DNA of 64,000 bases from Candidatus Woesebacteria bacterium (GTDB taxonomy: Bacteria > Patescibacteriota > Microgenomatia > UBA1400 > UBA12028), in assembly GCA_018060955.1 (NCBI GenBank), contig JAGOVC010000001.1, positions 5,558-69,557 of the forward strand. The letters are read 5' to 3'. Under the pieces are notes generated by a model. It was not told the DNA's origin. It did not search any database and worked only from the letters and a program-made list of their open reading frames with translations. Positions 2,750-47,771 of the stretch are shown in pieces. Numbering within the stretch: the first letter of the stretch is position 1; the number at the start of each line of letters is the position of its first letter. The position numbers were made by a program, and so were the translations under genes.

Positions 2750-4252
2750 ATGAACTTTGCAAAAATAACACCTACGGATGAAAAGACCCCGTCGCTGACG
2801 ATCGATGAGGACGTGTTACAAGTTGAAGATATTAAAAAAAGATCAATGAATGGGGCGATTTCGTATGTACTACGCTCTCTCTTTCTTCAAGGGATAGGTG
2901 TCCTCTCATATTTTTTATTGTCCGCATTGTTGTCTACAGGAGATTTTGGAATATACGGAATTGTTGTTTCAATCAGTAGCTTCTTTACGATTATCTCTGA
3001 TATTGGATTAGCTGCCTCGTTAATTCAAAAGAAAGAAGCTCCAACGATTCGTGACCTACGAACTGTTTTCACAGTTCAACAAATCCTTGCTTGGGTGGTT
3101 TGTCTGTTAATCATCGCAACTGCCTGGTCACTTCATCTAAGTGGAAGATTGGAACTACCGGCAGTATTTCTTGCTGGAGCATTTGCGTTATCCTTTCCCA
3201 TCGTTTCTCTAAAAACTATTTCCTCAATTCTTCTTGAACGTCAGCTAGAATTTGGAAAGTTGGCGATGCCTGCGGTTGTAGAAGCAATCGTCTTTAATGG
3301 GATTGTGCTGTTTTTTGCCTGGCGAGGAATGGGGATCACCAGTTATTCAATAGCCGTACTCGCACGAGCAATCGTTGGCGTCATCATTATGCTTTCCATC
3401 AAACGCTGGCCAGTCGGTTTTGCGTTTTCAAAACCTGCCTTTTCTGACCTAATGAAAGTAGGGATCAAATTTCAAGCGAATGATGTCATCGCAAAAATTA
3501 AAGATGAGTTATTCACTGTGATCACAGTGTTTTTGCTATCAAAATCTGAATTAGGGTACATTACCTGGGCGAATCAGGCTTCTAGACTACCGTATCGCTT
3601 TGGAGTTGATAGTGTCATGGCGATTACATTCCCAACCTTTGCACGACTTCAACACGATGCCCACTTGCTGAAACGAGCTATTGAGAAGACTCTGTTTTTT
3701 GTAAGTTTAGCTGTTTTCCCACTTCTGGCAGGTTTTGCAGTCATGTTTATTCCATTAACATCCTTGATTCCAAAGTATGCTCAATGGCAACCTGCATTAC
3801 TCACCCTCGGTTTCATGTGTGTGAGTATCGCCTTTTCATCGATCTCCACGCCGCTCATCAATACCCTCAATGCCATTGGTAAAATCAACACCTCTCTGCG
3901 ATTCATGTTGATTTGGACGCTGCTGCAGTGGACACTTACACCCTTAGCAATTTGGCGATTCGGCTTTAATGGTGTCGCCATTGCTAGTGTGATCATTTCT
4001 TTTACGGTAATCTTTGTCGTGCGCGCATTGCAGCGTGAGGTGCAATTTGCATTTGTTGAGCAAATCTGGAGGCAATTAGTGGCCTCTTTGTGTATGGCAG
4101 TGTTTTTATTTCAGTTCATTCCACTCTGGAGTCAGTCGTTCCTGCTATTCTGTGCAGGTGTCTTATCAGGAGGTCTACTTTTCATTGGCTTGCTGGCACT
4201 ATTAGGATTTGAGAAGATACGAGGAGAGTTGCTCTCACTAGTTCGAAGATAA
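2750..4252 (+). CDS. wzx: Wzx-type polysaccharide/oligosaccharide flippase (MOP superfamily, PST family).
   Basis: 500 aa with about 12-14 TM segments. The N-terminus (RSLFLQGIGVLSYFLLSALL...DFGIYGIVVSISSFFTIISDIGLAASLIQKKE) is typical of O-antigen or teichoic-acid flippases. Confidence 0.8.
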   Translation: MNFAKITPTDEKTPSLTIDEDVLQVEDIKKRSMNGAISYVLRSLFLQGIGVLSYFLLSALLSTGDFGIYGIVVSISSFFTIISDIGLAASLIQKKEAPTIRDLRTVFTVQQILAWVVCLLIIATAWSLHLSGRLELPAVFLAGAFALSFPIVSLKTISSILLERQLEFGKLAMPAVVEAIVFNGIVLFFAWRGMGITSYSIAVLARAIVGVIIMLSIKRWPVGFAFSKPAFSDLMKVGIKFQANDVIAKIKDELFTVITVFLLSKSELGYITWANQASRLPYRFGVDSVMAITFPTFARLQHDAHLLKRAIEKTLFFVSLAVFPLLAGFAVMFIPLTSLIPKYAQWQPALLTLGFMCVSIAFSSISTPLINTLNAIGKINTSLRFMLIWTLLQWTLTPLAIWRFGFNGVAIASVIISFTVIFVVRALQREVQFAFVEQIWRQLVASLCMAVFLFQFIPLWSQSFLLFCAGVLSGGLLFIGLLALLGFEKIRGELLSLVRR

Positions 4253-4258
4253 AAATCT

Positions 4259-5182
4259 ATGCCAACCATTACCGCAGTTATCCATACAAAGAATTCACAA
4301 CGCACTCTAGAAGCATGTCTAGCTTCAGTCAACTGGTGTACTGAAGTCTTTGTAATTGATATGGAGAGTACAGATGACACTGTGCAGATTGCAACAAAGC
4401 ATAAGGCAAAAGTGTTTCATGTTAAAGGTAGTCATCGTTTTGCTGATCCTGTTCGCGATGAATTCTTAAAAAAGGTTAAAACCGATTGGACGTTGATTGT
4501 AGATAGCGACGAAGAGGTTCCAGTGACATTAGCCACAAAAATTCAAGAGGTGATGAAATTAGATGAGTTTGATGGCCACAATTTACCTCGGAAAAATCTT
4601 ATTTTTGGACGCTGGATAGAACACACTGGTTTTTGGCCAGATTATATTTTACGTCTGTTTAAGACAGGCAAAGGGAGTTATCCTCCCTACATCCATGCGC
4701 AGCCGAAAGTTGAAGGTGCAATCCATAACCTTGAAGCTAATGAAGACTATGCTCTGGTTCATCACCACTACGAATCCATCGAAGAATTTTTGTTGCGGCT
4801 AAATGTGTACACCTCTTTGGAGGCACAAAAGTATCACTCGTTAGTTCAGGCAAAAGAAGTAGAGCCAGTACAAAAATTTGATTTCATTCAAAGCTTCTTT
4901 GATCAGTTCTTTACACGATTTTTTGCTCAGCAGGGATACAAGGATGGCAAGTTTGGTTTAGTCCTGTCGCTATTGATGGCAGTATATTCAATGGTAGTCC
5001 AAATGAAAATTTGGGAAGGCGTAAAAGAAAAAGATTCTGCTCTGACACTATCTGACGTTGAACTGTCCGTAAACCAAGCATGCACAAACACAACGTATTG
5101 GGTTGCAAATGAAGAGATGACCCAGGAAACAAATCTGTTAAAGAAAATGCAATTAAAGCTTCGAAGAAAGTTATCAAGTTGA
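4259..5182 (+). CDS. Family 2 glycosyltransferase; paralog set A with a C-terminal KGYKDG-type motif.
   Basis: The N-terminus ITAVIHTKNSQRTLEACLASV...VFVIDMESTDDT has GT2 Rossmann and DxD-like features. The C-terminal YKDGKFGLVLSLLMAVY amphipathic/TM segment is shared with the genes at 6185 and 14869. Confidence 0.8.
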   Translation: MPTITAVIHTKNSQRTLEACLASVNWCTEVFVIDMESTDDTVQIATKHKAKVFHVKGSHRFADPVRDEFLKKVKTDWTLIVDSDEEVPVTLATKIQEVMKLDEFDGHNLPRKNLIFGRWIEHTGFWPDYILRLFKTGKGSYPPYIHAQPKVEGAIHNLEANEDYALVHHHYESIEEFLLRLNVYTSLEAQKYHSLVQAKEVEPVQKFDFIQSFFDQFFTRFFAQQGYKDGKFGLVLSLLMAVYSMVVQMKIWEGVKEKDSALTLSDVELSVNQACTNTTYWVANEEMTQETNLLKKMQLKLRRKLSS

Positions 5183-5183
5183 T

Positions 5184-6239
5184 ATGGCAACAGTTGCAAT
5201 CATCCTTATAAACTATAATTCCACACGCCTAACTAAAAAGTGTGTAAAGTCATTATTTTCTACAAAAGAAGATCAAGACACTTATCATGTCGTCATCTGG
5301 GACAATGCATCAAAGCAAGCTCCCACACCGGAAGATTTTCCTGATTGTAAGCTAGTGCTGTCGCCCACAAACGACGGCTTTGCAAAAGGAAATAATCTTG
5401 CAGTGAAAACCGCATTGAAGACGCAAAATCCTGATTACCTATTGATCCTGAATAATGATACTCGAGTTACTAAAGGGATGATTCGACAACTTATCACAAC
5501 CTACCAATCTGCTAGTGACATCGGTATCGTTTTGCCCAAGATTTATTTTGAAAAAGGTTATGAGTTTCATCAAAAGGATTATGACCACAGCAAGTTGGGG
5601 AAAATATTATGGTTTGCTGGTGGAGGTATCGATTGGCGCAACGCAATTTTATTTCACAAAGGTGCTGATGAGGTCGATCGAGGACAATTTGATCTTGATA
5701 CGAGCTCTCATGTCTTGCAACAACACAAAGATAGTTTGGGACAAAAAATTGAGCGGTTACTGTTCGAAGACACAGTGCTTCCTGAACCTATTGGGGGACA
5801 AGCAACCAAAGCTACGTCTTACGATTCCCATTTTGCCACCGGATGTTGCTTTCTTATTACCCCAGCATTATGGAAAAAACTTCAGGGATTTGATGAAAAG
5901 TATTTTATGTATTATGAAGATGCAGATTTTTCACTTCGCCTCAAAAAGTTACGAAAGAGAATTGTTTTCGAGCCTCAATCATCGCTCTATCATCTGAACG
6001 CGGGGTCTTCTGGAGGGAGTGGTTCCACACTGCATCTGTACTATCAGACAAGAAATCGATTGCGCTTTGGTTTAAAGTATGCTTCCCTTAAAACTAAGCT
6101 GTTGCTTCTTCTAGAAGCACGTAGACAGTTCAGTCAGGGGACAGAAGCAGTGAAGCTTGGTATACTCCATGCATTGGAGGGTCGATGGGGCAATCAAACA
6201 AAATACATTCCACAACACAGACACTTTCAGCAATCATAA
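5184..6239 (+). CDS. Family 2 glycosyltransferase, rhamnosyltransferase-like (WbbL-type); paralog set B.
   Basis: VAIILINYNS...VIWDNASKQ, LILNNDTRV and the YFMYYEDADFSLRL motif. The start is 2 nt after the upstream stop. Confidence 0.8.
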   Translation: MATVAIILINYNSTRLTKKCVKSLFSTKEDQDTYHVVIWDNASKQAPTPEDFPDCKLVLSPTNDGFAKGNNLAVKTALKTQNPDYLLILNNDTRVTKGMIRQLITTYQSASDIGIVLPKIYFEKGYEFHQKDYDHSKLGKILWFAGGGIDWRNAILFHKGADEVDRGQFDLDTSSHVLQQHKDSLGQKIERLLFEDTVLPEPIGGQATKATSYDSHFATGCCFLITPALWKKLQGFDEKYFMYYEDADFSLRLKKLRKRIVFEPQSSLYHLNAGSSGGSGSTLHLYYQTRNRLRFGLKYASLKTKLLLLLEARRQFSQGTEAVKLGILHALEGRWGNQTKYIPQHRHFQQS

Positions 6240-7027
6240 TCACCAAAAATGAAGAAACCATGATTGCAAACTGTGTGGCAGCGCTGCGCTTTTGTGACGA
6301 AGTCATCGTTGTTGATTCTGGATCTACCGATAGCACGATGGAACTTGCAAAGCGTGAGGGTGCAAGTATTGTGCAGGTTACAGACGGGACATTTAAGGAT
6401 TGGCGCAATAAAGGATTGGCAGAAGCATCGAGTGACTGGATTTTGTATATCGATGCCGATGAGCGTGTGACGCCCAAACTGGCAGGAGAAATTCAGGAAT
6501 CGATTCAATTTACTTCAATGGCAGCCTTTCAGCTGAAGAGAAACAATATCCATTTTGGTAAATGGATGGAATACGGTGGCTGGGAAACTGACGTGATTGT
6601 CCGTCTGTTTAAAAAAGATCATCTCCAGGGTTGGAGCGGTGATGTTCATGAGTCAGCAACTGTAGATGGAGTAACTGGACAGTTGAAAGAACCACTTGTA
6701 CACCTTAGTCATCGCAGTATCCGGGATGGATTACTAAAATCACACGCCTGGATTGATTTGGAAGCAAAGCTTTTCATTGAAGCCAAGGCAAAGCCAGTCA
6801 CAGCCTGGACCCTCGTTCGTAAGTTTGGGATGGAATTTATTCGTCGGCTAATTCTTAAAAAGGGGTACAAAGATGGCATGGAAGGCTGGATTGAAAGTTT
6901 TCAGCAAGCCGTGAACCGCTTCTTTGTGTATGCCCGTGTCTGGGAGCTTCAACAGAAGCCATCTCTGGATGAGAAATATTCACGGATCGAAAAAGAGATT
7001 TTCAAACTCTGGGAAAAGCAGTCATAG
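6185..7027 (+). CDS. Family 2 glycosyltransferase; paralog set A.
   Basis: LSAIIITKNEE...VIVVDSGSTDST...KKGYKDGMEGWIESF. The ORF-track start overlaps the upstream gene by 55 nt, so the true start may be an alternative codon further in. Confidence 0.75.
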   Translation: MGQSNKIHSTTQTLSAIIITKNEETMIANCVAALRFCDEVIVVDSGSTDSTMELAKREGASIVQVTDGTFKDWRNKGLAEASSDWILYIDADERVTPKLAGEIQESIQFTSMAAFQLKRNNIHFGKWMEYGGWETDVIVRLFKKDHLQGWSGDVHESATVDGVTGQLKEPLVHLSHRSIRDGLLKSHAWIDLEAKLFIEAKAKPVTAWTLVRKFGMEFIRRLILKKGYKDGMEGWIESFQQAVNRFFVYARVWELQQKPSLDEKYSRIEKEIFKLWEKQS

Positions 7028-7041
7028 CTTGGTGTTATCCT

Positions 7042-8136
7042 ATGAAAACTGTAGGTCTTTATTCACCCTATATTCCAAAGCACGCTGGTGGTGGAGAGCG
7101 CTATTTGTTGAGTATTGCCGAAGTATGCAGTCAGTATCACTCAACATATCTTCTTGTACCGGCAGATCTTGTAGTGGAAACACAACGAGCCCTACCTCGA
7201 TACTCAAAAATGTTTGGGTTGGATTTATCTGCAGTCAAAGTGAAGGCAAGCCTCATTGGAATTTCTAAATCTCCCATCACCACAGTAAAAGAAACGCAGG
7301 CCTTCCATTACCTTTTTGCCATGACAGACGGTAGTATCTTCCCCACACTTTGTCGTAATTCCTATCTAATCATGCAAGTTCCATGGAAGCGTCCATTAAA
7401 GGTCACGGAACGCGCAAAATTAATCTCGTGGAAAAAAATACTCGTGTATTCGGACTTCGTTGCAAAAGTGCTATCTCAAAGTTGGCATGTACGGAAGCTG
7501 GAAGTTCTTGCCCCCTACGTGGATCATAAAGATTTTGTTGCTGGGAAGAAAGAAAAGCTTATTGTGACAACCGGTCGCTTTTTTGCCCATTCTCAAAGTA
7601 ACAGTAAGCATCAAGATGTGCTGATCCAAGCATTTATAAAATGGATCGATCAAGATCATCCGAAGGGCTGGCATTTTGCAGTCGTGGGTAATGTTGATCC
7701 AAACCCTGATAGTCATGACTACGTCTCGAAATTAAAAGAGCTTTCAAGAGGGTATCCAATTAGTTTGCATCTCAATGTTTCTTTTGATGAACTACGCGCC
7801 TTTTATGCTCGAGCGCAGTTTTATTGGCATGCTGCAGGATTTAACGTTGACGAAAAGAAGCATCCTGAGAACACGGAGCACTTTGGGATCACTACTGTTG
7901 AAGCAATGGCCAGCGGGGCAATACCGATCGTAGTTCCCAAAGGAGGTCAAGTCGAAGTCGTTGGAGATCCGCAGCTGTACTGGAACTCTCCTCAAGAATT
8001 AGTGGATGCAATGCGAAAGCTAGTAAAGCAGTCGTCTGCACAACGCGACGATTTGCTAGAGAAGTTGCTACTACAATCTAAACGGTATTCAAAAGAGAAC
8101 TTTGAGCGATCCCTAAAAAAGTTACTGAATCTATGA
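7042..8136 (+). CDS. GT4-family (GT-B fold) glycosyltransferase.
   Basis: C-terminal EHFGITTVEAMASGAIPIV nucleotide-sugar-binding motif. It is a paralog of the gene at 61074. Confidence 0.8.
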   Translation: MKTVGLYSPYIPKHAGGGERYLLSIAEVCSQYHSTYLLVPADLVVETQRALPRYSKMFGLDLSAVKVKASLIGISKSPITTVKETQAFHYLFAMTDGSIFPTLCRNSYLIMQVPWKRPLKVTERAKLISWKKILVYSDFVAKVLSQSWHVRKLEVLAPYVDHKDFVAGKKEKLIVTTGRFFAHSQSNSKHQDVLIQAFIKWIDQDHPKGWHFAVVGNVDPNPDSHDYVSKLKELSRGYPISLHLNVSFDELRAFYARAQFYWHAAGFNVDEKKHPENTEHFGITTVEAMASGAIPIVVPKGGQVEVVGDPQLYWNSPQELVDAMRKLVKQSSAQRDDLLEKLLLQSKRYSKENFERSLKKLLNL

Positions 8137-9059
8137 CACACGTTTCCGTTATTATCCCTAGTTACAACGGTAGGCAACTTCTGGAAAAAAATCTGCCTGC
8201 GGTGATAGATGCTATTCAAGAGAATGATGAAATTGTCATTGTTGATGATGCAAGTTCAGACGACACGCTCGCATGGATGCAACAACAGTTTTCAGTGGTC
8301 TCTCAAGAAAGTAGTGTTAAGGAAACCTTGCTGTACACTAGCAAATTTAAAAACAGGTTGATAAAAGTGTTGATCAATCAATCTAATCAGCGTTTTGCCA
8401 TTTCTTGCAATCGAGGGGTGTCTATTGCTAACTATCCCATTCTTCTTTTGCTAAATAATGACGTCGTCCCAGAATCAGACTTTCTACGCCCTCTTCTGGA
8501 GCATTTTAAATCTCCAGAAGTCTTTGCTGTGGGTTGTAAAGAGATAGCGACTGCGGAAGGAAATAAAGCCTATGGACGGGCAGGGGGCAGCTTCCAGAGA
8601 GGCTTCCTAGTTCATTTTAGAGAACCAAACCAAGATGAACGCACCACACTTTGGGCAGCAGGTGGGAGTGCCGTATTTCGAAAATCAATGTGGGATGAGT
8701 TACACGGCTTTGATCCTGACTACCGACCAGCATACTGGGAAGATATTGATTTATCTTGGAGAGCAATCCAGCAAGGTTGGAAGATACTCTTTGAACCACT
8801 CTCAGTGGTGCATCACAATCATGAGTCCACAAATGCTTCAGTCTTTGGAAAACAACAGATGGAGGTAATGGCATATAAAAATTCCATTTTGTTTATGTGG
8901 AAAAATGCACGTGGACTTGATTTGGTCTCCCATCTGCTGTGGTTACCGTATCACATCATTTTTACTTCACTGCGATCGCACGGTCGCTTTCTACAAGGAT
9001 TGTGGATGGCCTGTAAAACCGTGTTTGGTCATCGCTTAACCAACACGAGTAGGGTATAA
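8133..9059 (+). CDS. Family 2 glycosyltransferase, rhamnosyltransferase-like; paralog set B.
   Basis: VSVIIPSYNG...IVIVDDASSDDT, LLLNNDVVP and AYWEDIDLSWR. The start has an ATGA overlap with the upstream stop. Confidence 0.8.
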   Translation: MTHVSVIIPSYNGRQLLEKNLPAVIDAIQENDEIVIVDDASSDDTLAWMQQQFSVVSQESSVKETLLYTSKFKNRLIKVLINQSNQRFAISCNRGVSIANYPILLLLNNDVVPESDFLRPLLEHFKSPEVFAVGCKEIATAEGNKAYGRAGGSFQRGFLVHFREPNQDERTTLWAAGGSAVFRKSMWDELHGFDPDYRPAYWEDIDLSWRAIQQGWKILFEPLSVVHHNHESTNASVFGKQQMEVMAYKNSILFMWKNARGLDLVSHLLWLPYHIIFTSLRSHGRFLQGLWMACKTVFGHRLTNTSRV

Positions 9060-9076
9060 GAAGGATCAAGGTTACT

Positions 9077-10328: not shown

Positions 10329-11867
10329 GTGAAAACTACTGTAGCTTTTATCCTCATTTTGCTGATCGCGGGAGTGTTGCGACTATATCAGTTAGGCGTG
10401 TTCCCAAATGGACTAACATGGGATGAAGCGGCGATTGGCTATAACGCGTTTGGAATTGCAACCGTGCATAGAGATGAATGGTTACATCGAATGCCCATAG
10501 TCTTTCGTTCCTTTGGAGATTACAAATCACCTCTACTTATTTATGCAACATCGGTCATATTTCTATTGTTCAGTCCCACGGCATTTCTGATTCGATTACC
10601 AGTCGCACTCAGTGGGATAGGATTAGTTGTCGTTTCGTTCTTTCTCACACGAACTCTGTTGCGACGTTTTGGTGGGATTACAGAGTACAAGAAGTTACAG
10701 TTTTTAAGCTTGACGTCGATGCTCTTCGTGGCTGTTTCTCCGTGGGCAATTCATTTTTCCCGTATCGGTTTTGAATCGATGCTGGCAGCTTTTCTAGTGG
10801 CGTTGGGATGTCTAGCCTGGCTGTATGCAAAAACGAAACCGTATTATTGGATCGTCGGGTCTCTATCCTTTGCCTTATCGTTATATGCATACCATAGTGC
10901 GAAAGTTGTGGTTCCGTTATTTGTGGTTGTGTTGATTGCGGTGCTATTCAAAGATATCTTGAACTCTATTCGCTGGTTCTTGATGTCTGGTGTTATCGCT
11001 GGATGCATCTTACTTCCACTCGGTTATGCCTCATTTTTTGGAAAGGCAAATGATCGAGCCCTCAGTACAACCATCGTAGGAAAACCAGATGCAATGACGG
11101 GGTTCCTATCGCATTTGAAGGTGCAATATTCGCCATCCTATCTGGTTTTTGGTAATGACATCACCTACCGACATAGTACAAAAGAAGTCGGGGTACTGTA
11201 CCCAATCGAACTCGGGTTAATGCTGATCGGGGTTGGTAGTATTTTATTGCTTAAAGAATATAAAAAATTATGGTGGGTTCCAACTCTATTTGCTATCTCG
11301 GTCCTACCCGCTGCAATAGGTTTGGATGTTCCTCATGCAAATAGGGCAATTCTTGGTTTACCTTGGGCCCAAATATTAGCCGTGATTGGCTGTTCCAGTT
11401 TACTTTCTCAATTTAAACACCCAGTAACATCTCTGCGAAAAATTTCAGTTCCCATATTGATCGGAACTGCAATCATTACTATTTCTCTTCTATCGTGCGC
11501 TCGGTATTTGCAAATCTATGCCCGCACCTACTCATCCTCTATTGCTCTAAGTGAGTTTGGGTATGGATATAAAGAATTAATGGAATTTGTCCGGGCTAAA
11601 GAGTCAACAGTGGACAAAGTGTATTTCACCAACGCGTATGGGCAAGCATATATCTATCTCTTACTTTTTAAACAACTCGATCCAATTTCATATCGACAGG
11701 GAGCATTGGCAAACTACTCGATTTCCTCTACACCATTTGTAGACGCGCAAGGACAGAAAAAGGTGCTAGTCGTTGGTACTCCAAAAGATTTTCCACCAGG
11801 TGCAAACATCATCAAAGAGATTACCTATCCAGATGGCACAGCTGCGTTTCAAGTTGTGCAGCAATAA
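10329..11867 (+). CDS. GT39/GT83-type (ArnT/PMT-like) GT-C membrane glycosyltransferase; paralog 1 of a trio.
   Basis: GTG start. LRLYQLGVFPNGLTWDEAAIGYNAFGI has the aspartate-glutamate motif after TM1. There are about 11 TM segments and a C-terminal periplasmic domain (YGYKELMEFV...). Confidence 0.8.
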   Translation: MKTTVAFILILLIAGVLRLYQLGVFPNGLTWDEAAIGYNAFGIATVHRDEWLHRMPIVFRSFGDYKSPLLIYATSVIFLLFSPTAFLIRLPVALSGIGLVVVSFFLTRTLLRRFGGITEYKKLQFLSLTSMLFVAVSPWAIHFSRIGFESMLAAFLVALGCLAWLYAKTKPYYWIVGSLSFALSLYAYHSAKVVVPLFVVVLIAVLFKDILNSIRWFLMSGVIAGCILLPLGYASFFGKANDRALSTTIVGKPDAMTGFLSHLKVQYSPSYLVFGNDITYRHSTKEVGVLYPIELGLMLIGVGSILLLKEYKKLWWVPTLFAISVLPAAIGLDVPHANRAILGLPWAQILAVIGCSSLLSQFKHPVTSLRKISVPILIGTAIITISLLSCARYLQIYARTYSSSIALSEFGYGYKELMEFVRAKESTVDKVYFTNAYGQAYIYLLLFKQLDPISYRQGALANYSISSTPFVDAQGQKKVLVVGTPKDFPPGANIIKEITYPDGTAAFQVVQQ

Positions 11868-12099: not shown

Positions 12100-12739
12100 T
12101 CCTTCCATTTTTCAACAATTTGCTAATCAAAGCGGCAAACAACTGGATGACTTTATCGCAAAAGATGTCAAGGTGTATGATTTTGCAGTTGAGCCTCCCT
12201 TTATTACTGTGGTTGGGAGACTCGATGCGTCTAGTGTTGGGAAAATTAAAGCGGTTCAGGAGCAGCTTGAATCTGCTGACCCAAATCAATTCTATTACCC
12301 GGTCTCCCTCTATCATTTGACCATATTGGGGCGGATTCCTTCAACTCTTGACCAAGCAACCTTATTTTCGACGCTCGATGAAGTGTTACGAGAGAAAATG
12401 ACTTTTCATCTAGAAGGAGTGGCAACCAATCAACTTACTTCTTCGGTTTCAGCCTACCCTCAAGATTTTTCGCTCTATCAACTTCGACAGTCAATTCGAC
12501 GGCAATTATCCATTGAGGGAGATGATTACGCAAAACATCTTGCCCCATACGAATATATGGGTTGGGTAAATTTGCTACGGTATCTCCAAGTACCAACCCA
12601 GTCCTTTATTGATACACTGAAAGCATATCGAACAACTGACTTTGGCACCCTGAAGATCTCCACCATTGAGGTGTATCTTCTCCAAAAAAGGATACTCGAT
12701 CCAGCATTCTCGACGTGTATACACACGATTCAATTATGA
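12083..12739 (+). CDS. Hypothetical protein with a possible degenerate 2H-phosphoesterase-like H-x-T-x motif.
   Basis: 218 aa soluble protein with a single HLTI motif and no second clear H-x-[ST] motif. Coding periodicity and tight packing support a real gene. Confidence 0.55.
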   Translation: MKTADDPSIFQQFANQSGKQLDDFIAKDVKVYDFAVEPPFITVVGRLDASSVGKIKAVQEQLESADPNQFYYPVSLYHLTILGRIPSTLDQATLFSTLDEVLREKMTFHLEGVATNQLTSSVSAYPQDFSLYQLRQSIRRQLSIEGDDYAKHLAPYEYMGWVNLLRYLQVPTQSFIDTLKAYRTTDFGTLKISTIEVYLLQKRILDPAFSTCIHTIQL

Positions 12740-14409
12740 AACGACTATCCATCACAACCCTACTACTTTTTATCATTCTCGGTATGTCGTCATTCCTACG
12801 GTTGTATAAATTGGATTCCATTCCGCCATCGTTGTATTGGGAAGAAGCGGCACTGGGTTACGATGCGTATTCGATTGCAAAAACTGGAAAAGATCATCAT
12901 GGGAATCCATTTCCTATTGTTGCATTCCCATCCTTTGGAGATTACAAACCGAGCGGATACTTTTATGCAATTGTTCCGTTCGTTTTTACCTTGGGGCTTA
13001 ATGTTTGGAGTGTGAGACTTCCTTCAGCTCTTGCAGGAATTGCAAGTGTATTGCTTGTGTACTTAATTTGCAAAGAACTTTTCAATTCAAAGTCAGCCTT
13101 GCTTGCGGCATTCTTGTTTGGAATTCAACCGTGGGCGATTCAATTCTCGCGAGGAGGATGGGAGGTAAACCTAGCACTCACTGTTATCTTGGCTGGTGCT
13201 TATTTCTTACTGAAATCCAGAAGAAAAGTAGAGTATATGATTCTCGCAGCGATTTGTTTGGGACTTTCAATGTATATCTACCATGCTGCTCGACTATTTG
13301 CTCCCATCATCGGAATGCTTGGAGGCTTATGGATCCTTCATGGATTCTGGGTGAAGAAGACGCTGAAGCAAAACTTACTTCCAGTGATTATTTCCTTAGT
13401 TGCTGCAATTCTTTTAGTAAGTCCATTTGTCTTACACCTGAATGATTCAGCAGTGTCCTCTAGGTTTTCGCAGACATCAATCTTTTCCGATATTCTCCCA
13501 ATTCAGAAGAGTAATGCCGCTATTCAAGCCGCTGGAAACACCGTCGTTTCCAGATTAACCTTTCATCGCTACCGCTTTTTTGCAGAAGTGATTATTCAAC
13601 AACTCTTCTCACATTTTTCGTTACCCTTTTTATTTTTCCGTGGGGATGGAAATTTACGTCACGGTACAGGGAATGGGGGATTACTTTATCCTATCGAAAG
13701 TGTTGGAATCGGAATTGCGTTATTGATTGGGATTGTCTATGAAGCAAAAAAGCTTCGCGTGCAATTACCACAACTTGTACTCAAAGTACTTGATAGTCGC
13801 GACTACGGTGCAGCCATTTGGGTTGTGGTGCTCTGGATTATTATTGCTGCCGTTGCCCCAGCGTTGGTAACACCGGCGCCGCATGCGTTACGTTTTTTGT
13901 TTGCTGCACCTGCATTTGCAGTCCTTTCAAGCATTGGTATTCTTCATCTTGTGGGTAAGCTTTCGAAAAACATGCAGAAGCTGGTTCTGCTTTTGTTAGT
14001 GGGAGGATACTTTTTCTTTGCTGCACGTTTTCTGAGTTGGTCGATCCTCGCCTACCCAGTGACGAGTGCAAATGACTGGCAATTTGGATACAAAGAACTG
14101 TTTTCCACTTTAGATAAACAGAAGAACGAAGGGGAGAAGGTTTTTGTCAGTAGGTATCAGGGAAGACCATCCATGTACTATCTGTTCTTTTCAAAATTTG
14201 ATCCTTCTTCACTTCAACAAATAGAACCCACCCTTTCCAAAGATCAATTAGAGTTACTTAATGTCGGTGACTATTATTTTATCGATGGAGTGGGAAACAG
14301 CCCTGGGCTTTACGCTACAAGTCCAGATGCAGTTCCACCCCAAGCACAGGTCAAAGCTTTCATTCGGCGTCCCGATACAACGACTGTATGGGTTATTTGG
14401 AGGCAGTAG
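12736..14409 (+). CDS. GT39/GT83-type GT-C membrane glycosyltransferase; paralog 2.
   Basis: LRLYKLDSIPPSLYWEEAALGYDAYSI, and a C-terminal domain (FGYKELFSTL...) like that of 10329. The ATG at 12736 forms an ATGA overlap with the upstream stop. Confidence 0.8.
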   Translation: MKRLSITTLLLFIILGMSSFLRLYKLDSIPPSLYWEEAALGYDAYSIAKTGKDHHGNPFPIVAFPSFGDYKPSGYFYAIVPFVFTLGLNVWSVRLPSALAGIASVLLVYLICKELFNSKSALLAAFLFGIQPWAIQFSRGGWEVNLALTVILAGAYFLLKSRRKVEYMILAAICLGLSMYIYHAARLFAPIIGMLGGLWILHGFWVKKTLKQNLLPVIISLVAAILLVSPFVLHLNDSAVSSRFSQTSIFSDILPIQKSNAAIQAAGNTVVSRLTFHRYRFFAEVIIQQLFSHFSLPFLFFRGDGNLRHGTGNGGLLYPIESVGIGIALLIGIVYEAKKLRVQLPQLVLKVLDSRDYGAAIWVVVLWIIIAAVAPALVTPAPHALRFLFAAPAFAVLSSIGILHLVGKLSKNMQKLVLLLLVGGYFFFAARFLSWSILAYPVTSANDWQFGYKELFSTLDKQKNEGEKVFVSRYQGRPSMYYLFFSKFDPSSLQQIEPTLSKDQLELLNVGDYYFIDGVGNSPGLYATSPDAVPPQAQVKAFIRRPDTTTVWVIWRQ

Positions 14410-14872: not shown

Positions 14873-15768
14873 AGAAACGAGTACGCCTATCGGTAGTCAT
14901 TGCAACTCATAACGAGGAAGAAAACTTACCGCTATCATTACCGCCCTTAGTGGGTTTTGCCGATGAGATTTTAATTGCTGATGGGGAGAGCACCGACAAC
15001 ACCGTCAAGATTGCAAAAAGTTTTGGGGCTACCGTTATCCCAATGACCAACAAACGGATGTTTCATCATAACAAGCAGGCTGCAGGAGATCAGGCTAGCG
15101 GAGAATGGATACTGTATCTAGACGCAGATGAGATCGTTACCGATGCATTAAAAGAAGAAATCCTACAGATTCTAGATGGGAACCATCCTTCCTTACAAGG
15201 AGTTGCGACTGCTGACTATTTACCCACGACGGTTCGAAAAGCGTACCTTGCTCATCTTCATAATCTAGAAGTACGTGATCAGAAAAAGTTTCAAACCTCA
15301 CAACGGATCACTGCATACTTCATTGCCCGCAAGAATTGGTTTTTGGGCGCATATTTGATGCATGCTGGTGTATTTCCTGACGGAGTAATCCGATTAGTAA
15401 AAAAGGGAACAGCAGTGTGGCCATGCAAAGATGTGCATGAGACGATGGATGTGCAGGGAGGAGTTGGCTGGCTCATTGAACCCATGTTGCATCAAGCTGA
15501 TCCAACTTTTTCTCGGTATTTGATGCGTGCAAATCGTTACACGAATCTGACTGCAGATCAACTGACCTCTATGCATGTTCCGATTAGTTTTTCTTCGTGG
15601 ATCTACTACCTAATTTGGAAGCCTCTCAAAATATTTGTCCTACTTTTCTTTCGGCACAAAGGTTTCAAGGATGGTTTTAGTGGGTTCGTGTGGGCACTGA
15701 TGAGCGGACTTCACTGGCCGATCGCCTTTTTAAAATATGTAGAGTCTTCATATACACGAGGGCATTAA
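14869..15768 (+). CDS. Family 2 glycosyltransferase; paralog set A.
   Basis: LSVVIATHNEEENL...ILIADGESTDNT...HKGFKDGFSGFVWALMSG. ATGA overlap with the Nudix gene stop. Confidence 0.8.
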   Translation: MKKRVRLSVVIATHNEEENLPLSLPPLVGFADEILIADGESTDNTVKIAKSFGATVIPMTNKRMFHHNKQAAGDQASGEWILYLDADEIVTDALKEEILQILDGNHPSLQGVATADYLPTTVRKAYLAHLHNLEVRDQKKFQTSQRITAYFIARKNWFLGAYLMHAGVFPDGVIRLVKKGTAVWPCKDVHETMDVQGGVGWLIEPMLHQADPTFSRYLMRANRYTNLTADQLTSMHVPISFSSWIYYLIWKPLKIFVLLFFRHKGFKDGFSGFVWALMSGLHWPIAFLKYVESSYTRGH

Positions 15769-23737: not shown

Positions 23738-24394
23738 ATGAACGTCTTTATCATCATTCCCGGCCATAACGAGCAAGAGTATGTGTCGACAGTGCTTTCT
23801 AAAGTGAAAGCCATTCATTCTCAGGTTATTTTTGTCGATGACGGTTCAACGGACAACACTGCAGAACTAGCAAAAGCCCACACAAAACACGTACTTAGTC
23901 ATGAAACAAACCTCGGTAAAGGTGCCGCTTTAAAAACTGGGTGTGAGTACGCATTTTCTACCCTCAATGCAGATGCCGTTATTTTCATGGATGCAGACGA
24001 TCAACACGATCCTAAAGAAATTCCAAAATTTATCGCTCAGCTTGAAAACTTCGATGTGGTTTTTGGTGTTCGAAAAATGGGTGCAAATATGCCGTTATCG
24101 CGGTTTTTAGGGAATAAATTCGCTTCAGTGTTACTCAACGTGCTATATGGTGGGTATATACCAGATATTCCCTCAGGGTATAAAGCACTGACAAGTAAAG
24201 GGTACCGAAAAGTAAAATGGAAGTCATCTGGCTATGAAGTCGAAACAGAAATTGCGATGCGAGTGACAAAGGAGCATGTTCCTTACGCCGTAATTGAAAT
24301 TGAAGCGATTTATCACGATACCGATAAGGGGATGACGCTCATCGATGGAATACATATCTGTCGCTGTTTGCTAGAATGGAAAGTAGGATTATGA
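23738..24394 (+). CDS. Short GT2 polyprenyl-phosphate sugar synthase-like enzyme (DPM1/GtrB-like catalytic domain with no long C-terminal TM region).
   Basis: VFIIIPGHNEQEYV...VIFVDDGSTDNT...LGKGAALKTGCEYAF...MDADDQHDP. Confidence 0.75.
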   Translation: MNVFIIIPGHNEQEYVSTVLSKVKAIHSQVIFVDDGSTDNTAELAKAHTKHVLSHETNLGKGAALKTGCEYAFSTLNADAVIFMDADDQHDPKEIPKFIAQLENFDVVFGVRKMGANMPLSRFLGNKFASVLLNVLYGGYIPDIPSGYKALTSKGYRKVKWKSSGYEVETEIAMRVTKEHVPYAVIEIEAIYHDTDKGMTLIDGIHICRCLLEWKVGL

Positions 24395-34951: not shown

Positions 34952-36743
34952 AACGCATCCTTTTTCGATAGAGAATACTATTATCGCTGTGGGTTTGGTC
35001 CTGGTAGTACTTGCCTATGTACTTTCTGCTTTCTCCTTATTTCAAGTTGAAGTTCTTCGAGGGATCGGCCTCGCTATTGGAGTTTACTTTTTCATCCAAC
35101 TCGTCTTGCATCATCACAAAATATTGCATACCACTGCATTAAGAATATTTGCTGTGTTTGCACTTATCGCTTTTATTCAAGGTTCTTTTTCAGTTCCTAC
35201 AACGACCGATGCCCATAACTATCACATTCCTCGAGCAATCTATTGGTTACAGAACCATTCGGTATTTCAATCCGTCATCCACACTTCTCATGATTTCATG
35301 GGCCCGTTACCAAGTATTCTGTTATCCCTGATGTATAGTCTCACCAACTCGGATTTGTTGTTGTTTGTTCCGCAGTGGTTAGCCTATGTTGCGATCTTCT
35401 TCTTAATCGGTAGACTTGCAAAACTATTGGAGTACTCTTCAAGACAAATCCAGTCTGCCCAGTTGATATCGTTGAGTATTCCAATAGCGACACTACAGGC
35501 AAGTAGTGTTCAAAGTGATCTACTTGTTGCGGTGTGGGTACTTGTTTCGGTTATTTTTGCTGTTCGGTATCTGAAAGAACAGTCAAAGATTCATTTACTA
35601 TTATGTACACTTTCAGTCTTCCTTGGATTTTTGACGAAAGCCACCATGGTGATTTATGCCGTTATTCCGATCGGTTTGCTTAGTTGGCAGTTCCTCAGCC
35701 ATCGAGAGGACAGGGTCAATATGCTAAAGGTAGGAATGATCGGTTGTTTCATAGGTACTCTACTATGTCTACCGCATTTGCTTCAGAACAATGTACTGTT
35801 TCATTCGTACTTAGGTACCAGTTACACCGTGGATGGGAAGAGCATTCCATTTACCGTAAACAGTTTAAGTATTGCTGGGAGCATAGAAAATGTATATCGA
35901 AATATTTTCATGCACATTCCATTTTTGAGCTTTTCACCAATACTTGATTCGTTGGTAGATGGACTAAAGCCTGTCGGTATTTCAATCGACTTATCTGAGA
36001 CTTCATGGTTCAATTCTGAGTTTTTCCATGCAAGTTTGCCTATTCCACAAGAAGATATTGCGCCTGCTCCATTGCACATGTTGATAATCGGGGTAGCACT
36101 AGTAACCGTAATTCGAAGAAATAAAAAAATTCTCAACAATCAAACACTACTATTTGCGAGTAGTATTTGCGCATTTATCGTTTTTTGTATCGTGTTGCGT
36201 TGGCAGCCTTATCATATACGCCAACAGATGAGTATCATCTTTCTTCTGATAGTGTCAGGTATAGGAGTAATAAATCTCTCAAACAGAGCGTTAAACGTAT
36301 TGTGTACACTCTCTGTAGCAATTGGTCTCGTGGTGATCGTAAGCAACGTGTCACGTCCAATTATTTCGTATCAACCACTTCTTTCAAAGGTTGCAGTTGT
36401 GATACCAGAAGGTTTTTCTCCGCCAGAATCAGTTCTTCGAGGTCGAAATGTAGCCAATTACTTTTTGTCACGTCCGTATTGGCAACCTGCGTACATTGAA
36501 ATGACATCCTATCTGCATGAGAAGAACATCAACAAAGTGGGTTTTACGGGAAGAGAAGGTTACGTGTATCCCTTTATCAAAGTTGCATCTAAACAGAACA
36601 TCGTAGTTGTTCCAGCAGCCGATCCAACATCAAAAGTAAAGGTGGTAGCAGGATTAATTGAGGATCAACAGTTAGAAAAGGCACAATACTGTAGTCAAAC
36701 TGCCGATGCAAATAAAGTCATTTGCGTGTATTTTAATCCCTAG
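34941..36743 (+). CDS. Polytopic membrane protein, function unknown; a candidate polymerase, ligase or GT-C.
   Basis: About 600 aa with at least 12 helices. The internal ATG at 34941 overlaps the upstream stop by 11 nt. Confidence 0.7.
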   Translation: MKNRTHPFSIENTIIAVGLVLVVLAYVLSAFSLFQVEVLRGIGLAIGVYFFIQLVLHHHKILHTTALRIFAVFALIAFIQGSFSVPTTTDAHNYHIPRAIYWLQNHSVFQSVIHTSHDFMGPLPSILLSLMYSLTNSDLLLFVPQWLAYVAIFFLIGRLAKLLEYSSRQIQSAQLISLSIPIATLQASSVQSDLLVAVWVLVSVIFAVRYLKEQSKIHLLLCTLSVFLGFLTKATMVIYAVIPIGLLSWQFLSHREDRVNMLKVGMIGCFIGTLLCLPHLLQNNVLFHSYLGTSYTVDGKSIPFTVNSLSIAGSIENVYRNIFMHIPFLSFSPILDSLVDGLKPVGISIDLSETSWFNSEFFHASLPIPQEDIAPAPLHMLIIGVALVTVIRRNKKILNNQTLLFASSICAFIVFCIVLRWQPYHIRQQMSIIFLLIVSGIGVINLSNRALNVLCTLSVAIGLVVIVSNVSRPIISYQPLLSKVAVVIPEGFSPPESVLRGRNVANYFLSRPYWQPAYIEMTSYLHEKNINKVGFTGREGYVYPFIKVASKQNIVVVPAADPTSKVKVVAGLIEDQQLEKAQYCSQTADANKVICVYFNP

Positions 36744-41309: not shown

Positions 41310-42845
41310 ATGGAATCGAGTGGCGTGATCAGACAAAAAACCTGGATCGGTGGAATTATTTGTCTTCTAGCTAGCATTGGTTTTGCTTTTTATCTCTTTT
41401 CAGCCAGCTTATCGAACGCATTTTCACCCATTGATGATCACGAACTAGTGTTGCACCTTAGGGGACAAGAGAGACTATCCATTTCACAAGTAACTGCATT
41501 GTGGCAACGAGATCTTCAAGCGACTGGAAGATTTCGTCCTCTGTATAACATTCTTCGTCCGCTTGAGCTACTTCTATGGGGAAACCATCTAAATCTCTGG
41601 TACTTGGCTCGCGTCATTCTCTTTAGTCTATCGATGTTCTTGTGCTGGTTACTTTTGAAACACGCGGTCGGGATGCTCTTTGCATCTCTAATCAGCTCAT
41701 GGTTTTTTACATTTGCGTTTTGGGCAGACATTATTGGCAGGCTGGGGCCATCAGAGAGTTACAGTCTATTTGGCTTGCTTTGTTGGGCTTGCGGTCTTTA
41801 TGGGCTCTATGCGCGGTCACAACAAACTTCTGCATGGAGTTGGTTATTACTTTCTATCGGAAGTATCATTGCGATTCTTACCAAAGAGAACATGCTGATC
41901 ATCGTGCTTCCAACCATCGGAATCACTTTGCTTAATCGGTCGAAAGTATATTCAAAAGGTCTGTTGTTTCTTCCAGTAATTTCTAGTTTCTTGGCATCAT
42001 TTTTCGTTATCCGATATTTAGTAAGATTATCCTCTGTAGTAGGAGTTGATGTGTACGGCAATAGTCTAGGTGTGTCTAGAGTAAGCCTGCTACTGGATGT
42101 ATTTTTAGATAAAACAGTTCTAGGATTGCTACTTGGAAGTGCGATTTTACTTTGGTTTTCGATTTCTGTTCCCTCACCAAGCTGGCGAAGAGATTTTTCA
42201 CATCTTTGTTGGGCATGGATAACCGCCGTCTCTTTACTCATATCCCAGAGTTTCTTTTACAACGGCCAATGGCCAACAAATATTCGCTATGATTTCCCAG
42301 GAATGTTCTACAAGCTGATCATTGTCGTTAGTGTGATATTTCTTCTAAAGCGGGTTGTGATTGATCGTTTGGATAACCAGTCGGCACGAATAGTAACGCT
42401 GGTGCTGACATGCTTCCTTTTTCTAGGAGTCATACGTCGTTCGCAGATTTGGGTTTTGCGTTCTCGAGTCCAAGCCTATCATCAACTGACACGATCTTTT
42501 GCTTCAGGATTACAAGCTATCAAAGCGACGAGCCCTTCAATGGATATCATTTTAGAATCAACCTCGATAAATGATCTTGAAATTATTCACGCCATCCAAG
42601 TATCTCTTCGACAAAAATATCTAGCCAATGCCATCTATCTTCGTTTACACCATCAAAATACTAATGAAGAAGGGGCATTGGGAGGGCAACTGTATACAAG
42701 CCTGTTACAAACTCAAAACGATGGTACGGATGTTTTTATGCCACTAGCTAAAAGAGAAGCTGTGAAACCTTGCATCTCGATTTTCCTTGGGCAAGAAACT
42801 CAAACGGAGTGCACACCATCCAGCATTATTGCAGTGACATGGTAG
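41310..42845 (+). CDS. Polytopic membrane protein, function unknown.
   Basis: 511 aa, with many helices in the N-terminal two-thirds and a soluble C-terminal domain. Confidence 0.7.
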   Translation: MESSGVIRQKTWIGGIICLLASIGFAFYLFSASLSNAFSPIDDHELVLHLRGQERLSISQVTALWQRDLQATGRFRPLYNILRPLELLLWGNHLNLWYLARVILFSLSMFLCWLLLKHAVGMLFASLISSWFFTFAFWADIIGRLGPSESYSLFGLLCWACGLYGLYARSQQTSAWSWLLLSIGSIIAILTKENMLIIVLPTIGITLLNRSKVYSKGLLFLPVISSFLASFFVIRYLVRLSSVVGVDVYGNSLGVSRVSLLLDVFLDKTVLGLLLGSAILLWFSISVPSPSWRRDFSHLCWAWITAVSLLISQSFFYNGQWPTNIRYDFPGMFYKLIIVVSVIFLLKRVVIDRLDNQSARIVTLVLTCFLFLGVIRRSQIWVLRSRVQAYHQLTRSFASGLQAIKATSPSMDIILESTSINDLEIIHAIQVSLRQKYLANAIYLRLHHQNTNEEGALGGQLYTSLLQTQNDGTDVFMPLAKREAVKPCISIFLGQETQTECTPSSIIAVTW

Positions 42846-46380: not shown

Positions 46381-46388
46381 GAAAGCCC

Positions 46389-47771
46389 TTACTTTGTTCG
46401 AAAAGATAACTCTTTAAAAGAAATAGTCCGAGTGACGAATAAAAGCAAGAGGTAAATTAGTCCCATAAAGAATGCAGCAAAGATCCAGTTGGGTTTAAGT
46501 AGTAGCGCTACCAGAGCAGAAACGGTAATACACAGTGCTGGAGCAACAATTGCACGTAGTGGAAGTGAGTGCCCAACAAAATGCCGAAGGAAGAAAAATC
46601 CAATGAGTTCACACAGAAGTGTGGCTAGTGCCGCTCCTTCAACTCCGAATACAGGAATTAACAAGAGATTTAATCCAATATTGAGAATTGTGAGAAAAGC
46701 AAGCACTTTGGTATGGATTTTTTCTTTTCTTCCGGTGTACATAAAATACGACAGCGGTGCATTCAAATACAACACTATAATTGTCAATCCAAAAAGCTGG
46801 AGAACAGGTGCTGCGCTGGCATAGTCAGAGCCAAATGCTGTTAACATCACTTCTTTTGCAAAAAGAAGACAACAGGCAGCAATGTAAAACGCCACGACGG
46901 ATAAGTATCGAGTGGCCAAGAATAGTGAACGGGTGAGCTTTTCATCTTCCTTATCCGCGTAGAGTTTGGTCAATGTCGGAACGGAGACTGCAAGAATAAT
47001 TCCAGGAAGAATTACAGCCGCATCCATCAATCGATACGCTGTACTGTACGGAGCAACCGCAGCGACTCCCAGTAAATGACGAATGATTAACATGTCGACA
47101 CGAAAATATAAGATTCCAAAGACACTTAACATGAAAAGTGGGAGTGATTTTGAAATGACCTGGACTGACTTTTTTAGGTCAAATTTCGGAGGTTTGAAAC
47201 CTCCTGTCCAGATATTTGACAAGGCTATCGCAACGATTTTTCCGATAATGAACAGGACAAATACCATCAGGAGTTTACCTCCCAGTAGAAGCACTGCAAT
47301 TCCACCCACATAGGCTACTGCTTTTTCACTGCCATCAATGATTGCGGTCAAATGGAACCGATCTCTAGCAGAGAGAAACATTTTATTAAGTTGCAGATAT
47401 CCGTCCAGGAGAAAGTACACATAGGCCAAAAGAAACTCTAAACTGACAAAACGATCGATAAAGAAAACGTAGATGAACAATAAAATACTCACTGGGATTG
47501 TTAATAGGATCCGTGTGCCCAGCAAAAGCTGTCGTTCTTTCTCGAAATCTTCAGGATTGGTGCTCCAGTGCCGTAAAAAATAGGTCGGAATGCCTAATTC
47601 AATAAAAAGATTGACAATGACTAAAGTGGAGAAGATGTAACTGTATACTCCAAACTCAAATTGGCTTGTGGCCTTAATGAGTACGACCGTAAAGACAAAC
47701 CCTAAAATGTTTGAGACAATCTGATAGACCGTTTGGACACCTGCGTTGCGTACAATAAGCTGTTTGTTCAT
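46389..47771 (-). CDS. wzx: Wzx-type flippase (MOP/PST family).
   Basis: 460 aa with about 12 TM segments. The N-terminus VRNAGVQTVYQIVSNILGFVFTVVLIKA...FGVYSYIFS is typical. Confidence 0.8.
   Translation of the reverse strand: MNKQLIVRNAGVQTVYQIVSNILGFVFTVVLIKATSQFEFGVYSYIFSTLVIVNLFIELGIPTYFLRHWSTNPEDFEKERQLLLGTRILLTIPVSILLFIYVFFIDRFVSLEFLLAYVYFLLDGYLQLNKMFLSARDRFHLTAIIDGSEKAVAYVGGIAVLLLGGKLLMVFVLFIIGKIVAIALSNIWTGGFKPPKFDLKKSVQVISKSLPLFMLSVFGILYFRVDMLIIRHLLGVAAVAPYSTAYRLMDAAVILPGIILAVSVPTLTKLYADKEDEKLTRSLFLATRYLSVVAFYIAACCLLFAKEVMLTAFGSDYASAAPVLQLFGLTIIVLYLNAPLSYFMYTGRKEKIHTKVLAFLTILNIGLNLLLIPVFGVEGAALATLLCELIGFFFLRHFVGHSLPLRAIVAPALCITVSALVALLLKPNWIFAAFFMGLIYLLLLFVTRTISFKELSFRTK

Follow-up and report, generated by a model that had tools for sequence, protein, structure and literature searches.

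The 64,000-nucleotide stretch of Candidatus Woesebacteria contig JAGOVC010000001.1 analysed here (the window) makes up the larger part of a glycoconjugate island of more than 70 kb in a genome of the candidate phyla radiation (CPR, or Patescibacteria), a largely uncultivated group with genomes of ~1 Mb. The window carries two Wzx-type flippases, Wzx1 and Wzx2, together with predicted polyprenyl-phosphate sugar synthases and ~16 large membrane proteins of GT-C glycosyltransferase type, and has no gene of a recognisable family for a priming phosphoglycosyltransferase (primase), a Wzy polymerase or a Wzz chain-length regulator. We give a probability of roughly 0.55 to the reading that the island runs on multi-component transmembrane glycosylation that needs no primase, and not on the combination of WbaP or WecA with Wzx, Wzy and Wzz.

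In such a system, synthesis would be initiated by GT2-family polyprenyl-phosphate sugar synthases (the pair at 23738-24729, the protein at 55218-56216 and a short DPMS-like GT2 to the left of the window), which would make sugars linked to undecaprenyl phosphate (Und-P). Some of these Und-P-sugars would serve as direct donors, and at least one would probably be extended, by the four or five soluble GT2 and GT4 enzymes beside Wzx1, to an Und-P-linked oligosaccharide. Wzx1, Wzx2 and small membrane proteins, either GtrA-type or with four transmembrane (TM) segments, would flip the lipid-linked sugars, and the ~16 GT-C-type enzymes would pass sugars, singly or as whole units, to a surface polymer or protein and possibly polymerise them. 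Gene identities, the GT-C fold of the protein at 41310, the absence of primase, Wzy and Wzz families from the inspected DNA and the conserved synteny are observed; the lipid linkage, the cargo of each flippase, the GT-C enzyme that polymerises or ligates, and the acceptor are what we infer from gene content.

Results

Two flippases and no primase, Wzy or Wzz family in the window

Both flippases that a first-pass annotation of this DNA had named are genuine by their Pfam matches (Table 1) and by NCBIfam matches to MOP flippases. Each has multiple TM segments in addition to its Wzx/MOP domain; in NCBIfam, Wzx1 matches a MOP flippase model at 7e-33 and an O-glycosylation flippase model at 1.9e-23, both under the curated cut-offs, and Wzx2 matches the MOP flippase family at 7.5e-5, below equivalog level. 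The annotation had gone on to conclude that a Wzx implies units linked to undecaprenyl diphosphate, which does not follow, since Und-P-linked sugars are the proposed or demonstrated cargo of two Wzx-type flippases, GacK and WpsG (10.1101/180810; PMC10821137).

A Pfam scan (E<=0.01) took in all substantial open reading frames (ORFs), which together span 98.6% of the window; the biggest unscanned gap, of 288 bp, leaves no room for a hidden primase gene. Neither the window ORFs nor the inspected flanks gave a match to Bac_transf (WbaP/PglC), to Glycos_transf_4 (MraY/WecA/TagO), to Wzy_C/O-antigen ligase, EpsG or another O-antigen polymerase family, or to a Wzz/PCP chain-length regulator. The window ORFs likewise lacked Pfam matches to LCP and ABC-transporter/exporter families and to STT3, the WWDxG motif itself not having been specifically searched for. 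When ten ORFs without a Pfam match (nine of them for large polytopic proteins, the tenth the truncated GT-C fragment at 73-1053) were rescanned at E<=10, only noise was returned, and a crude six-frame regular-expression scan of the window and of loci L001-L024 for motifs of Bac_transf and MraY/WecA came back empty. The earlier statement that the window has no recognisable primase, Wzy or Wzz was therefore borne out.

The inspected DNA comprised the 71-kb contig and parts of relatives, the window plus flanks amounting to ~85 kb. On the right, 1.8 kb of the same contig hold the GT-C gene that crosses the window's edge, then Peptidase_S51 and glyoxalase-family genes, and then the contig end; the next ~10 kb in a relative (L013) hold unrelated genes followed by a group of GT2, epimerase, PMT_2 and GT4 genes, with no primase or Wzy family listed. 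The left flank was read over ~7 kb in relative L002 (CAZWPK010000002.1), whose Wzx1 is 88% identical and which is collinear with window positions 13-14252. It consists, in order, of a GT2-GtrA/DPMS TM fusion, two PMT_2 genes, a GT2 of 248 amino acids (aa), a 417-aa polytopic protein and the PMT_2 gene that ends in window 1-1053. The suggestion that the missing enzymes lie outside the window thus found no WbaP/WecA and Wzy pair in the immediate flanks to support it.

Three proteins were considered as cryptic members of the missing families and rejected. The product of L002:5482-6735 (~417 aa, 9-11 TM), a possible Wzy or WecA, has no Pfam match and aligns to PMT_2 paralogs at 92% probability. 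Two proteins were weighed as small PglC-like primases: that at 12083-12739 (218 aa) has no Pfam or motif match and no TM segment, and that at 29288-30280 (330 aa) is without a Pfam, motif or NCBIfam match. The absence of a primase or a Wzy is in itself common and unsurprising, and the O-antigen clusters of E. coli are likewise without wecA.

Predicted polyprenyl-phosphate sugar synthases

The first-pass annotation overlooked a set of predicted polyprenyl-phosphate sugar synthases in the window and its left flank, enzymes of a kind that can replace a phosphoglycosyltransferase. We refer to genes by their lowest window coordinate. The soluble GT2 encoded at 23738 matches the NCBIfam AglJ and PpgS models over its full length, below their equivalog cut-offs, and in the PDB matches ArnC (6e-12), DPMS (5mlz, 9e-12, residues 1-215) and GtrB. 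The gene for the small DUF2304 membrane protein at 24376 overlaps its stop codon. In S. pyogenes, the DUF2304 protein GacJ activates GacI to make N-acetylglucosamine (GlcNAc)-P-undecaprenol, and PpgS/Rv3632 of M. tuberculosis is the equivalent pair (10.1101/180810). By its predicted proteins, the 23738-24376 pair is a GacI/GacJ arrangement, for which a sugar-P-C55 product is predicted.

A second putative synthase, 55218, aligns with PgfS over residues 20-328 (model positions 2-307 of 308) at 249 bits against a cut-off of 500, so that it is not an equivalog; the homology is full-length and includes the C-terminal TM hairpin, its TM segments lying at about residues 239-310. The adjoining small protein 56221 is a candidate ArnE/F-like flippase for an Und-P-sugar, and an epimerase and three polytopic proteins flank the two genes. 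In Geobacter sp. FeAm09, homologs of 55218 (44% identity) and 56221 (45%) stand directly beside a homolog of the window's GT-C protein 41310 and a Wzx, which ties the 41310 family to this three-component kit. The Geobacter locus (L014; CP042466.1, 2944244-2961863) is a Gram-negative cluster of lipopolysaccharide (LPS) type, where the neighbours of the 41310 homolog are an epimerase, an ArnC-like GT2, a methyltransferase, a 4-TM protein, the Wzx, GT4 genes and a GT9 heptosyltransferase-family gene; the 41310 family is therefore not restricted to CPR.

A gene module conserved around Wzx1

The related loci were annotated by BLAST against the window proteins. When species-representative genomes were scanned with Wzx1 as query, relatives came only from metagenome-assembled genomes (MAGs) of CPR/Patescibacteria type (Microgenomates, Woesebacteria, Amesbacteria and 'Patescibacteria group'), with several more in 'binchicken' MAGs that are titled Pseudomonadales and whose gene content fits a Woesebacteria-type lineage. 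Three of the latter, L002, L003 and L004 (CAZWPK01, CAZDWN01 and CAZNKS01), deposited as 'uncultured Pseudomonadales bacterium', are collinear with the Woesebacteria contig and have Wzx1 proteins of 50-88% aa identity, and their deposited taxonomy looks wrong.

The Wzx1 neighbourhood is kept in L002-L009 and in three metagenome contigs (L017, L022 and L023), that is, in Microgenomates, Woesebacteria, Amesbacteria and metagenomes, and in L011 and L013 synteny reaches across the middle of the window to its right end. Downstream of Wzx1, the series GT2, GT2, GT2, GT4 (and GT2) has the same order in all eleven loci; the five soluble glycosyltransferases are presumed to be cytoplasmic oligosaccharide builders. 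Upstream, among the loci that include the region, a short soluble GT2 of 230-250 aa is present in L002-L005 and L007-L009. Its L002 representative (4734-5480, 248 aa) matches DPMS best, at 4.7e-15, and then ArnC and GtrB. All three are polyprenyl-phosphate glycosyltransferases, so that the constant companion of Wzx1 would be a lipid-monophosphate sugar synthase and not a phosphoglycosyltransferase. The short GT2 has no adjacent DUF2304 gene.

One or two GT-C genes ('73-like' and '1057-like') also belong to the module. The 1057-like gene, which in most related loci immediately precedes Wzx1, adjoins it in L002-L005, L009, L017, L022 and L023 and lies ~7 kb upstream in L006; the BLAST comparison with the window proteins found none in L007 or L008. 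A gene of the 18586 family stands directly beside Wzx1 in six loci (L006, L008, L009, L017, L022 and L023). We tentatively suggest that this module of Microgenomates and Woesebacteria (the DPMS-like GT2, two GT-C proteins, Wzx, the 18586-family protein and four or five soluble glycosyltransferases) might build a major envelope glycopolymer or glycoprotein glycan without a phosphoglycosyltransferase or Wzy, in which case 1057-, 18586- and 41310-like GT-C proteins might act as polymerase and ligase for Und-P-linked oligosaccharides.

The GT-C complement and the five hydrophobic candidates

Sixteen large polytopic non-transporter proteins make up 40% of the window. Eleven are GT-C by direct or family-level evidence from Pfam, profile comparison or fold (1-1053, 1057, 10329, 12715, 15765, 26410, 30277, 34827, 41310, 52783 and 62600), two are probable GT-C (18586 and 21855), and three (27666, 56573 and 58407) are without a firm fold assignment. 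The 1057 family, which has no Pfam match, aligns by hhalign with the window PMT_2 paralogs at 97.7% probability and with the 41310 family at 84%.

Five of the sixteen had been put forward as places where a Wzy or a primase might be hidden. The five ORFs are where they were reported and all are polytopic, with only the starts differing (longest ORFs from 34827 instead of 34941 and from 18586 instead of 18589). As hiding places they fared poorly: three (30277, 34827 and 41310) are GT-C by sequence or fold, 18586 is a probable GT-C, and 27666 has no firm fold.

The window protein at 30277 has no match of its own. Starting from six close homologs, an exhaustive profile search gathered 1619 relatives; PMT_2 is matched by 37 of 80 aligned members (best 3.2e-7), and hhalign against the window PMT_2 proteins gives 84%. 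A D-W-D...Y-D motif is invariant in the family, as are residues D126, Y131 and D132. Immediately upstream, at 29288-30280, lies the gene of a 330-aa protein whose N-terminal part has TM helices and whose C-terminal half is soluble; its stop codon overlaps the start of 30277. The gene is also conserved in L011, and its product may be an accessory or acceptor-binding subunit of the 30277 GT-C.

The Pfam-less protein 41310 has the GT-C fold. Its transmembrane fold is that of GT-C enzymes, with Pmt4 and Pmt2 ranked as fold neighbours above AglB, STT3B and PglB, and I41, D42, D43 and H44, directly after TM1, are invariant in 40 homologs and supply the acidic first loop. Family members also occur in Leptospira, Bradyrhizobium and Oligoflexia.

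Protein 18586 has no match in Pfam, NCBIfam or the PDB, even with a seven-member profile, and profile alignments suggest that it is probably a GT-C with a three-TM N-terminal extension. Aligned by hhalign with the 1057 family it scores 74% (E 2.7e-5) and 50%, collinear over ~170 columns, and with the PMT_2 set 61-82%, over only 40 columns. Its loop motif (consensus Ff..N..DG..H, with D153, G154 and H157 invariant) falls ~3 positions from the FFRPHD..H of the 1057 family.

For 27666 we lean, from sequence, towards a GT-C fold. Its LIC_10190_fam match reaches 103.6 bits against a cut-off of 100 and an ortholog carries PF26626 (DUF8201); the sole link to GT-C is that 34827 matches both PMT_2 and LIC_10190_fam, with shared D-x3-YHIP and G..TK motifs and a weak hhalign score. 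A single-sequence AlphaFold2 model of the protein had a confidence (pLDDT) of 45 and was discarded. Sequence and profile searches of the PDB with 30277, 41310, 18586, 27666, 56573 and 58407 returned nothing meaningful. Precomputed annotation lists PF19830 (DUF6311) and PF26626 for 58407 and 27666 or their orthologs, and our own Pfam scans, relaxed to E<=10, were blank for these families; the two evidently rest on different Pfam copies or different thresholds.

Table 1. Features of the window. Coordinates are window positions; values after family names are E-values unless marked otherwise; 'candidate' marks the five hydrophobic proteins proposed earlier.
Coordinates	Strand	Feature	Evidence
1..1053	+	C-terminal part of PMT_2-type GT-C; gene begins left of window	Ortholog L002:6504-8303 (599 aa): PMT_2 1.1e-8, PMT 6.8e-7; synteny
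1057..2745	+	'1057 family' GT-C, motif FFRPHDYTH after TM1	No Pfam match; profile comparison
2750..4252	+	Wzx1, MOP-family flippase	Polysacc_synt_3 6e-40, Polysacc_synt 1.5e-20
4259..9059	+	Five soluble glycosyltransferases (GT2, GT2, GT2, GT4, GT2)	Pfam
10329..11867	+	GT-C, WDEA motif	blastp 6e-43 to PMT_2 protein 12715; weak Agl23 TIGR03663 1.9e-9
12715..14409	+	GT-C (PMT_2)	PMT_2 2.2e-11, PMT 4.5e-7
15765..17489	-	GT-C (PMT_2)	PMT_2 2.2e-10
18586..20646	+	Polytopic Pfam-less protein, three-TM N-terminal extension (candidate 18589-20646)	No Pfam, NCBIfam or PDB match, even with seven-member profile
21855..23642	+	Probable GT-C	No Pfam match; blastp 9e-5 to 52783, 4e-3 to 26410 (both PMT_2)
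23738..24394	+	GacI/WpsA/PpgS-type soluble GT2, predicted polyprenyl-phosphate sugar synthase	218 aa, no TM; NCBIfam AglJ 1.2e-28, PpgS 5.1e-28
24376..24729	+	DUF2304 small membrane protein, GacJ/WpsB/Rv3632-type partner	DUF2304 1.2e-17; overlaps stop codon of GT2 23738
26410..27660	-	GT-C (PMT_2, marginal)	PMT_2 7.9e-6, 26.6 bits vs cut-off 26.1
27666..29327	-	LIC_10190-family/DUF8201 polytopic protein (candidate)	NCBIfam LIC_10190_fam 1e-29, 103.6 bits vs cut-off 100
30277..31620	+	Divergent GT-C (candidate)	Family-level PMT_2 homology; window protein itself without match
34827..36743	+	GT-C (candidate 34941-36743)	PMT_2 6.4e-6; LIC_10190_fam 1.4e-4
41310..42845	+	GT-C-fold glycosyltransferase, Pfam-less family (candidate)	Fold; invariant I-D-D-H after TM1
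43976..52771		Genes around Wzx2	Pfam: GT4, DegT aminotransferase, GT4, GFO/IDH/MocA oxidoreductase, hexapeptide acyltransferase, DegT, GT2
46389..47771	-	Wzx2, MOP-family flippase	Polysacc_synt 7.3e-23, Polysacc_synt_3 8e-13, MurJ 3.8e-10
52783..54258	-	GT-C (PMT_2)	PMT_2 1.6e-12
55218..56216	+	PgfS/ArnC/GtrB-type GT2 with C-terminal TM helices, predicted Und-P-sugar synthase	NCBIfam PgfS 4.7e-74, ArnC 3.1e-45
56221..56562	+	4-TM EamA/TMEM234-like small membrane protein	Weak TMEM234 1.9e-4, EamA 6e-4
56573..58384	-	Polytopic protein, HDEYYH motif	No Pfam, NCBIfam or PDB match
58407..60092	+	Polytopic protein, precomputed DUF6311	Own Pfam scans blank; PF19830 listed for gene in L012, L013
62600..64000	+	N-terminal 467 residues of 550-aa GT-C-like protein running off window	hhalign 93-96% vs PMT_2 paralogs; 100% identical to KBD71_00310

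Other genes of the window

The genes around Wzx2 would, judging from their families, make and transfer a diamino or acetamido sugar. Three consecutive ones, at 49168-51929 (+), encode an oxidoreductase of the GFO family, an acyltransferase of hexapeptide type and a DegT aminotransferase, a trio that appears to resemble the WbpB/D/E pathway for 2,3-diacetamido sugars and uronamides. The minus strand at 39381-41252 codes for an AsnB-type glutamine amidotransferase.

Housekeeping-type genes are interspersed with the GT-C genes at 9077-12739 and 14261-14872: GreA, an Fe/Mn superoxide dismutase (minus strand), DUF1653 and a NUDIX hydrolase. Among them is the conserved 218-aa soluble protein at 12083-12739, to which neither Pfam nor motifs assign a function; SodA and 12083-like genes are kept at the same place in L003. 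The sole sizeable non-coding gap, 288 bp at 21567-21854, lies between the epimerase gene at 20667 and the GT-C-like gene at 21855, has stops in all three forward frames, and may be a promoter or an operon boundary. A metagenome scan with the GT4 at 61074 gave no matches.

Discussion

In the polysaccharide pellicle (PSP) pathway of Lactococcus lactis, GlcNAc-P-C55 is the product of WpsA, a GT2, and the small membrane protein WpsB. Cytoplasmic extension is the work of WpsC-F, WpsG (a flippase of Wzx type) then carries the product out, and proteins of GT-C fold polymerise it and join it to rhamnan; for L. lactis/cremoris the set WpsA/WpsB, WpsC-F, WpsG, WpsH/I and WpsJ has been termed a 'four-component glycosylation system' (PMC10821137). 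GacI/J/K/L of S. pyogenes follow the same logic for a single sugar (10.1101/180810; review PMC8035078), and the review generalises these as 'multi-component transmembrane glycosylation systems', including a Wzx-type variant (PMC8035078). The system type itself is known from Firmicutes.

The window resembles the Lactococcus pathway in that its GT2 and DUF2304 pair would correspond to the soluble GT2 and small membrane protein that there prime on C55-P without a phosphoglycosyltransferase, and in having two Wzx, ~20 soluble glycosyltransferases and many GT-C proteins. It differs in that no rgp rhamnan backbone cluster is in view, nor TagO, an ABC exporter or an LCP ligase, in its far larger GT-C set (~16), in the short GT2 beside Wzx1 that has no DUF2304 gene next to it, and in its host, a CPR bacterium and not a Firmicute. 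With the Gac system it shares a GtrB/DPMS-like GT2 with a DUF2304 partner, a Wzx-family flippase and a GT-C transferase, and the order short GT2, GT-C, GT-C, Wzx1 mirrors gacI-L. Whereas Gac moves a single GlcNAc onto polyrhamnose, four or five extra soluble glycosyltransferases are co-transcribed with Wzx1 here, which suggests an oligosaccharide. A further likeness is to ArnC/ArnE-F/ArnT and to PgfS/PgfE/PgfM1/PgfM2 of S. mutans (PMC12041528): 55218, homologous to PgfS and ArnC over its full length, adjoins a 4-TM EamA-like protein, an epimerase and polytopic proteins, the same trio that accompanies the 41310-family GT-C in Geobacter. The scores, however, are below the equivalog cut-offs, and the partner membrane proteins are not of YfhO or ArnT family by Pfam. 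With classical Wzx/Wzy O-antigen and capsule clusters the window shares MOP flippases amid glycosyltransferase and sugar-nucleotide genes, but none of the Bac_transf/WecA, Wzy_C, EpsG, O-antigen polymerase or Wzz/PCP families was found in it or in the inspected flanks.

Several points weigh against glycosylation without a primase. The GacI/J-type pair adjoins neither Wzx in the window, and the left flank was read in the 88%-identical relative and not in the contig itself. The NCBIfam scores to PpgS, AglJ, PgfS and ArnC are all below equivalog cut-offs, so that sugar specificity and the lipid-phosphate acceptor are read from family membership, and a mono- rather than a diphosphate linkage is likewise deduced, from the kinds of gene present. 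A WecA/TagO- or WbaP-type primase may lie on another contig, and one of 18586, 27666, 56573 and 58407, which have no firm fold, could be a Wzy-like polymerase.

Taken together, the last two points make up the alternative that survives best, a conventional Wzx pathway with a primase of WecA/TagO or WbaP/PglC type elsewhere in the genome, a cryptic Wzy among those four polytopic proteins, and GT-C enzymes that only add side-chain sugars. Genes for primases are frequently located away from glycan clusters, and Wzy proteins are frequently missed by hidden Markov models; inspection covered the 71-kb contig and parts of relatives; and the 18586 family travels with Wzx1, as a polymerase would. We nevertheless consider this pathway rather unlikely, because no primase turned up in the window and its flanks (~85 kb) or in the motif scan of ~10 related Wzx1 loci, because the conserved neighbour of Wzx1 is instead a DPMS-like GT2, and because three of the five Wzy candidates are demonstrably GT-C and 18586 itself is collinear with a GT-C family, its acidic loop-1 motif included.

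The first-pass annotation had also raised the possibility that GT-C enzymes act en bloc as oligosaccharyltransferases or O-OTases; the part of this that gives GT-C enzymes the extracytoplasmic steps holds, and the part that makes them oligosaccharyltransferases is not supported, the proteins being PMT_2/ArnT-like and not STT3/PglB or PglL. A protein-glycosylation island in which flipped oligosaccharides are transferred en bloc to pilins, S-layer or other surface proteins is improbable. The Pgf-like module and the PMT_2 family do lend plausibility to protein acceptors, but Pmt/Pgf enzymes move sugars one at a time, and the window has neither an STT3 nor a PglL family.

What appears new, relative to the Firmicute systems, is the CPR setting, the ~16 GT-C-type genes in 64 kb, and a CPR module that combines Wzx, a DPMS-like GT2 and GT-C families missed by Pfam; we found no papers on CPR together with GT-C or mannosyltransferases, nor on LIC_10190, DUF8201 or DUF6311. 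The families of 41310, 18586 and 1057 add to GT-C diversity that current Pfam models miss, and for annotation the window is a caution that a Wzx without a primase and a Wzy need not mean an incomplete cluster. This lineage spends more than 70 kb on surface glycosylation, with GT-C-type enzymes taking up 40% of the window. If glycosylation here is indeed free of primase and Wzy, the multi-component scheme of Lactococcus and Streptococcus would reach into a distant and very large bacterial radiation, as a module for the cell-surface chemistry that probably mediates the attachment of CPR cells to their hosts.

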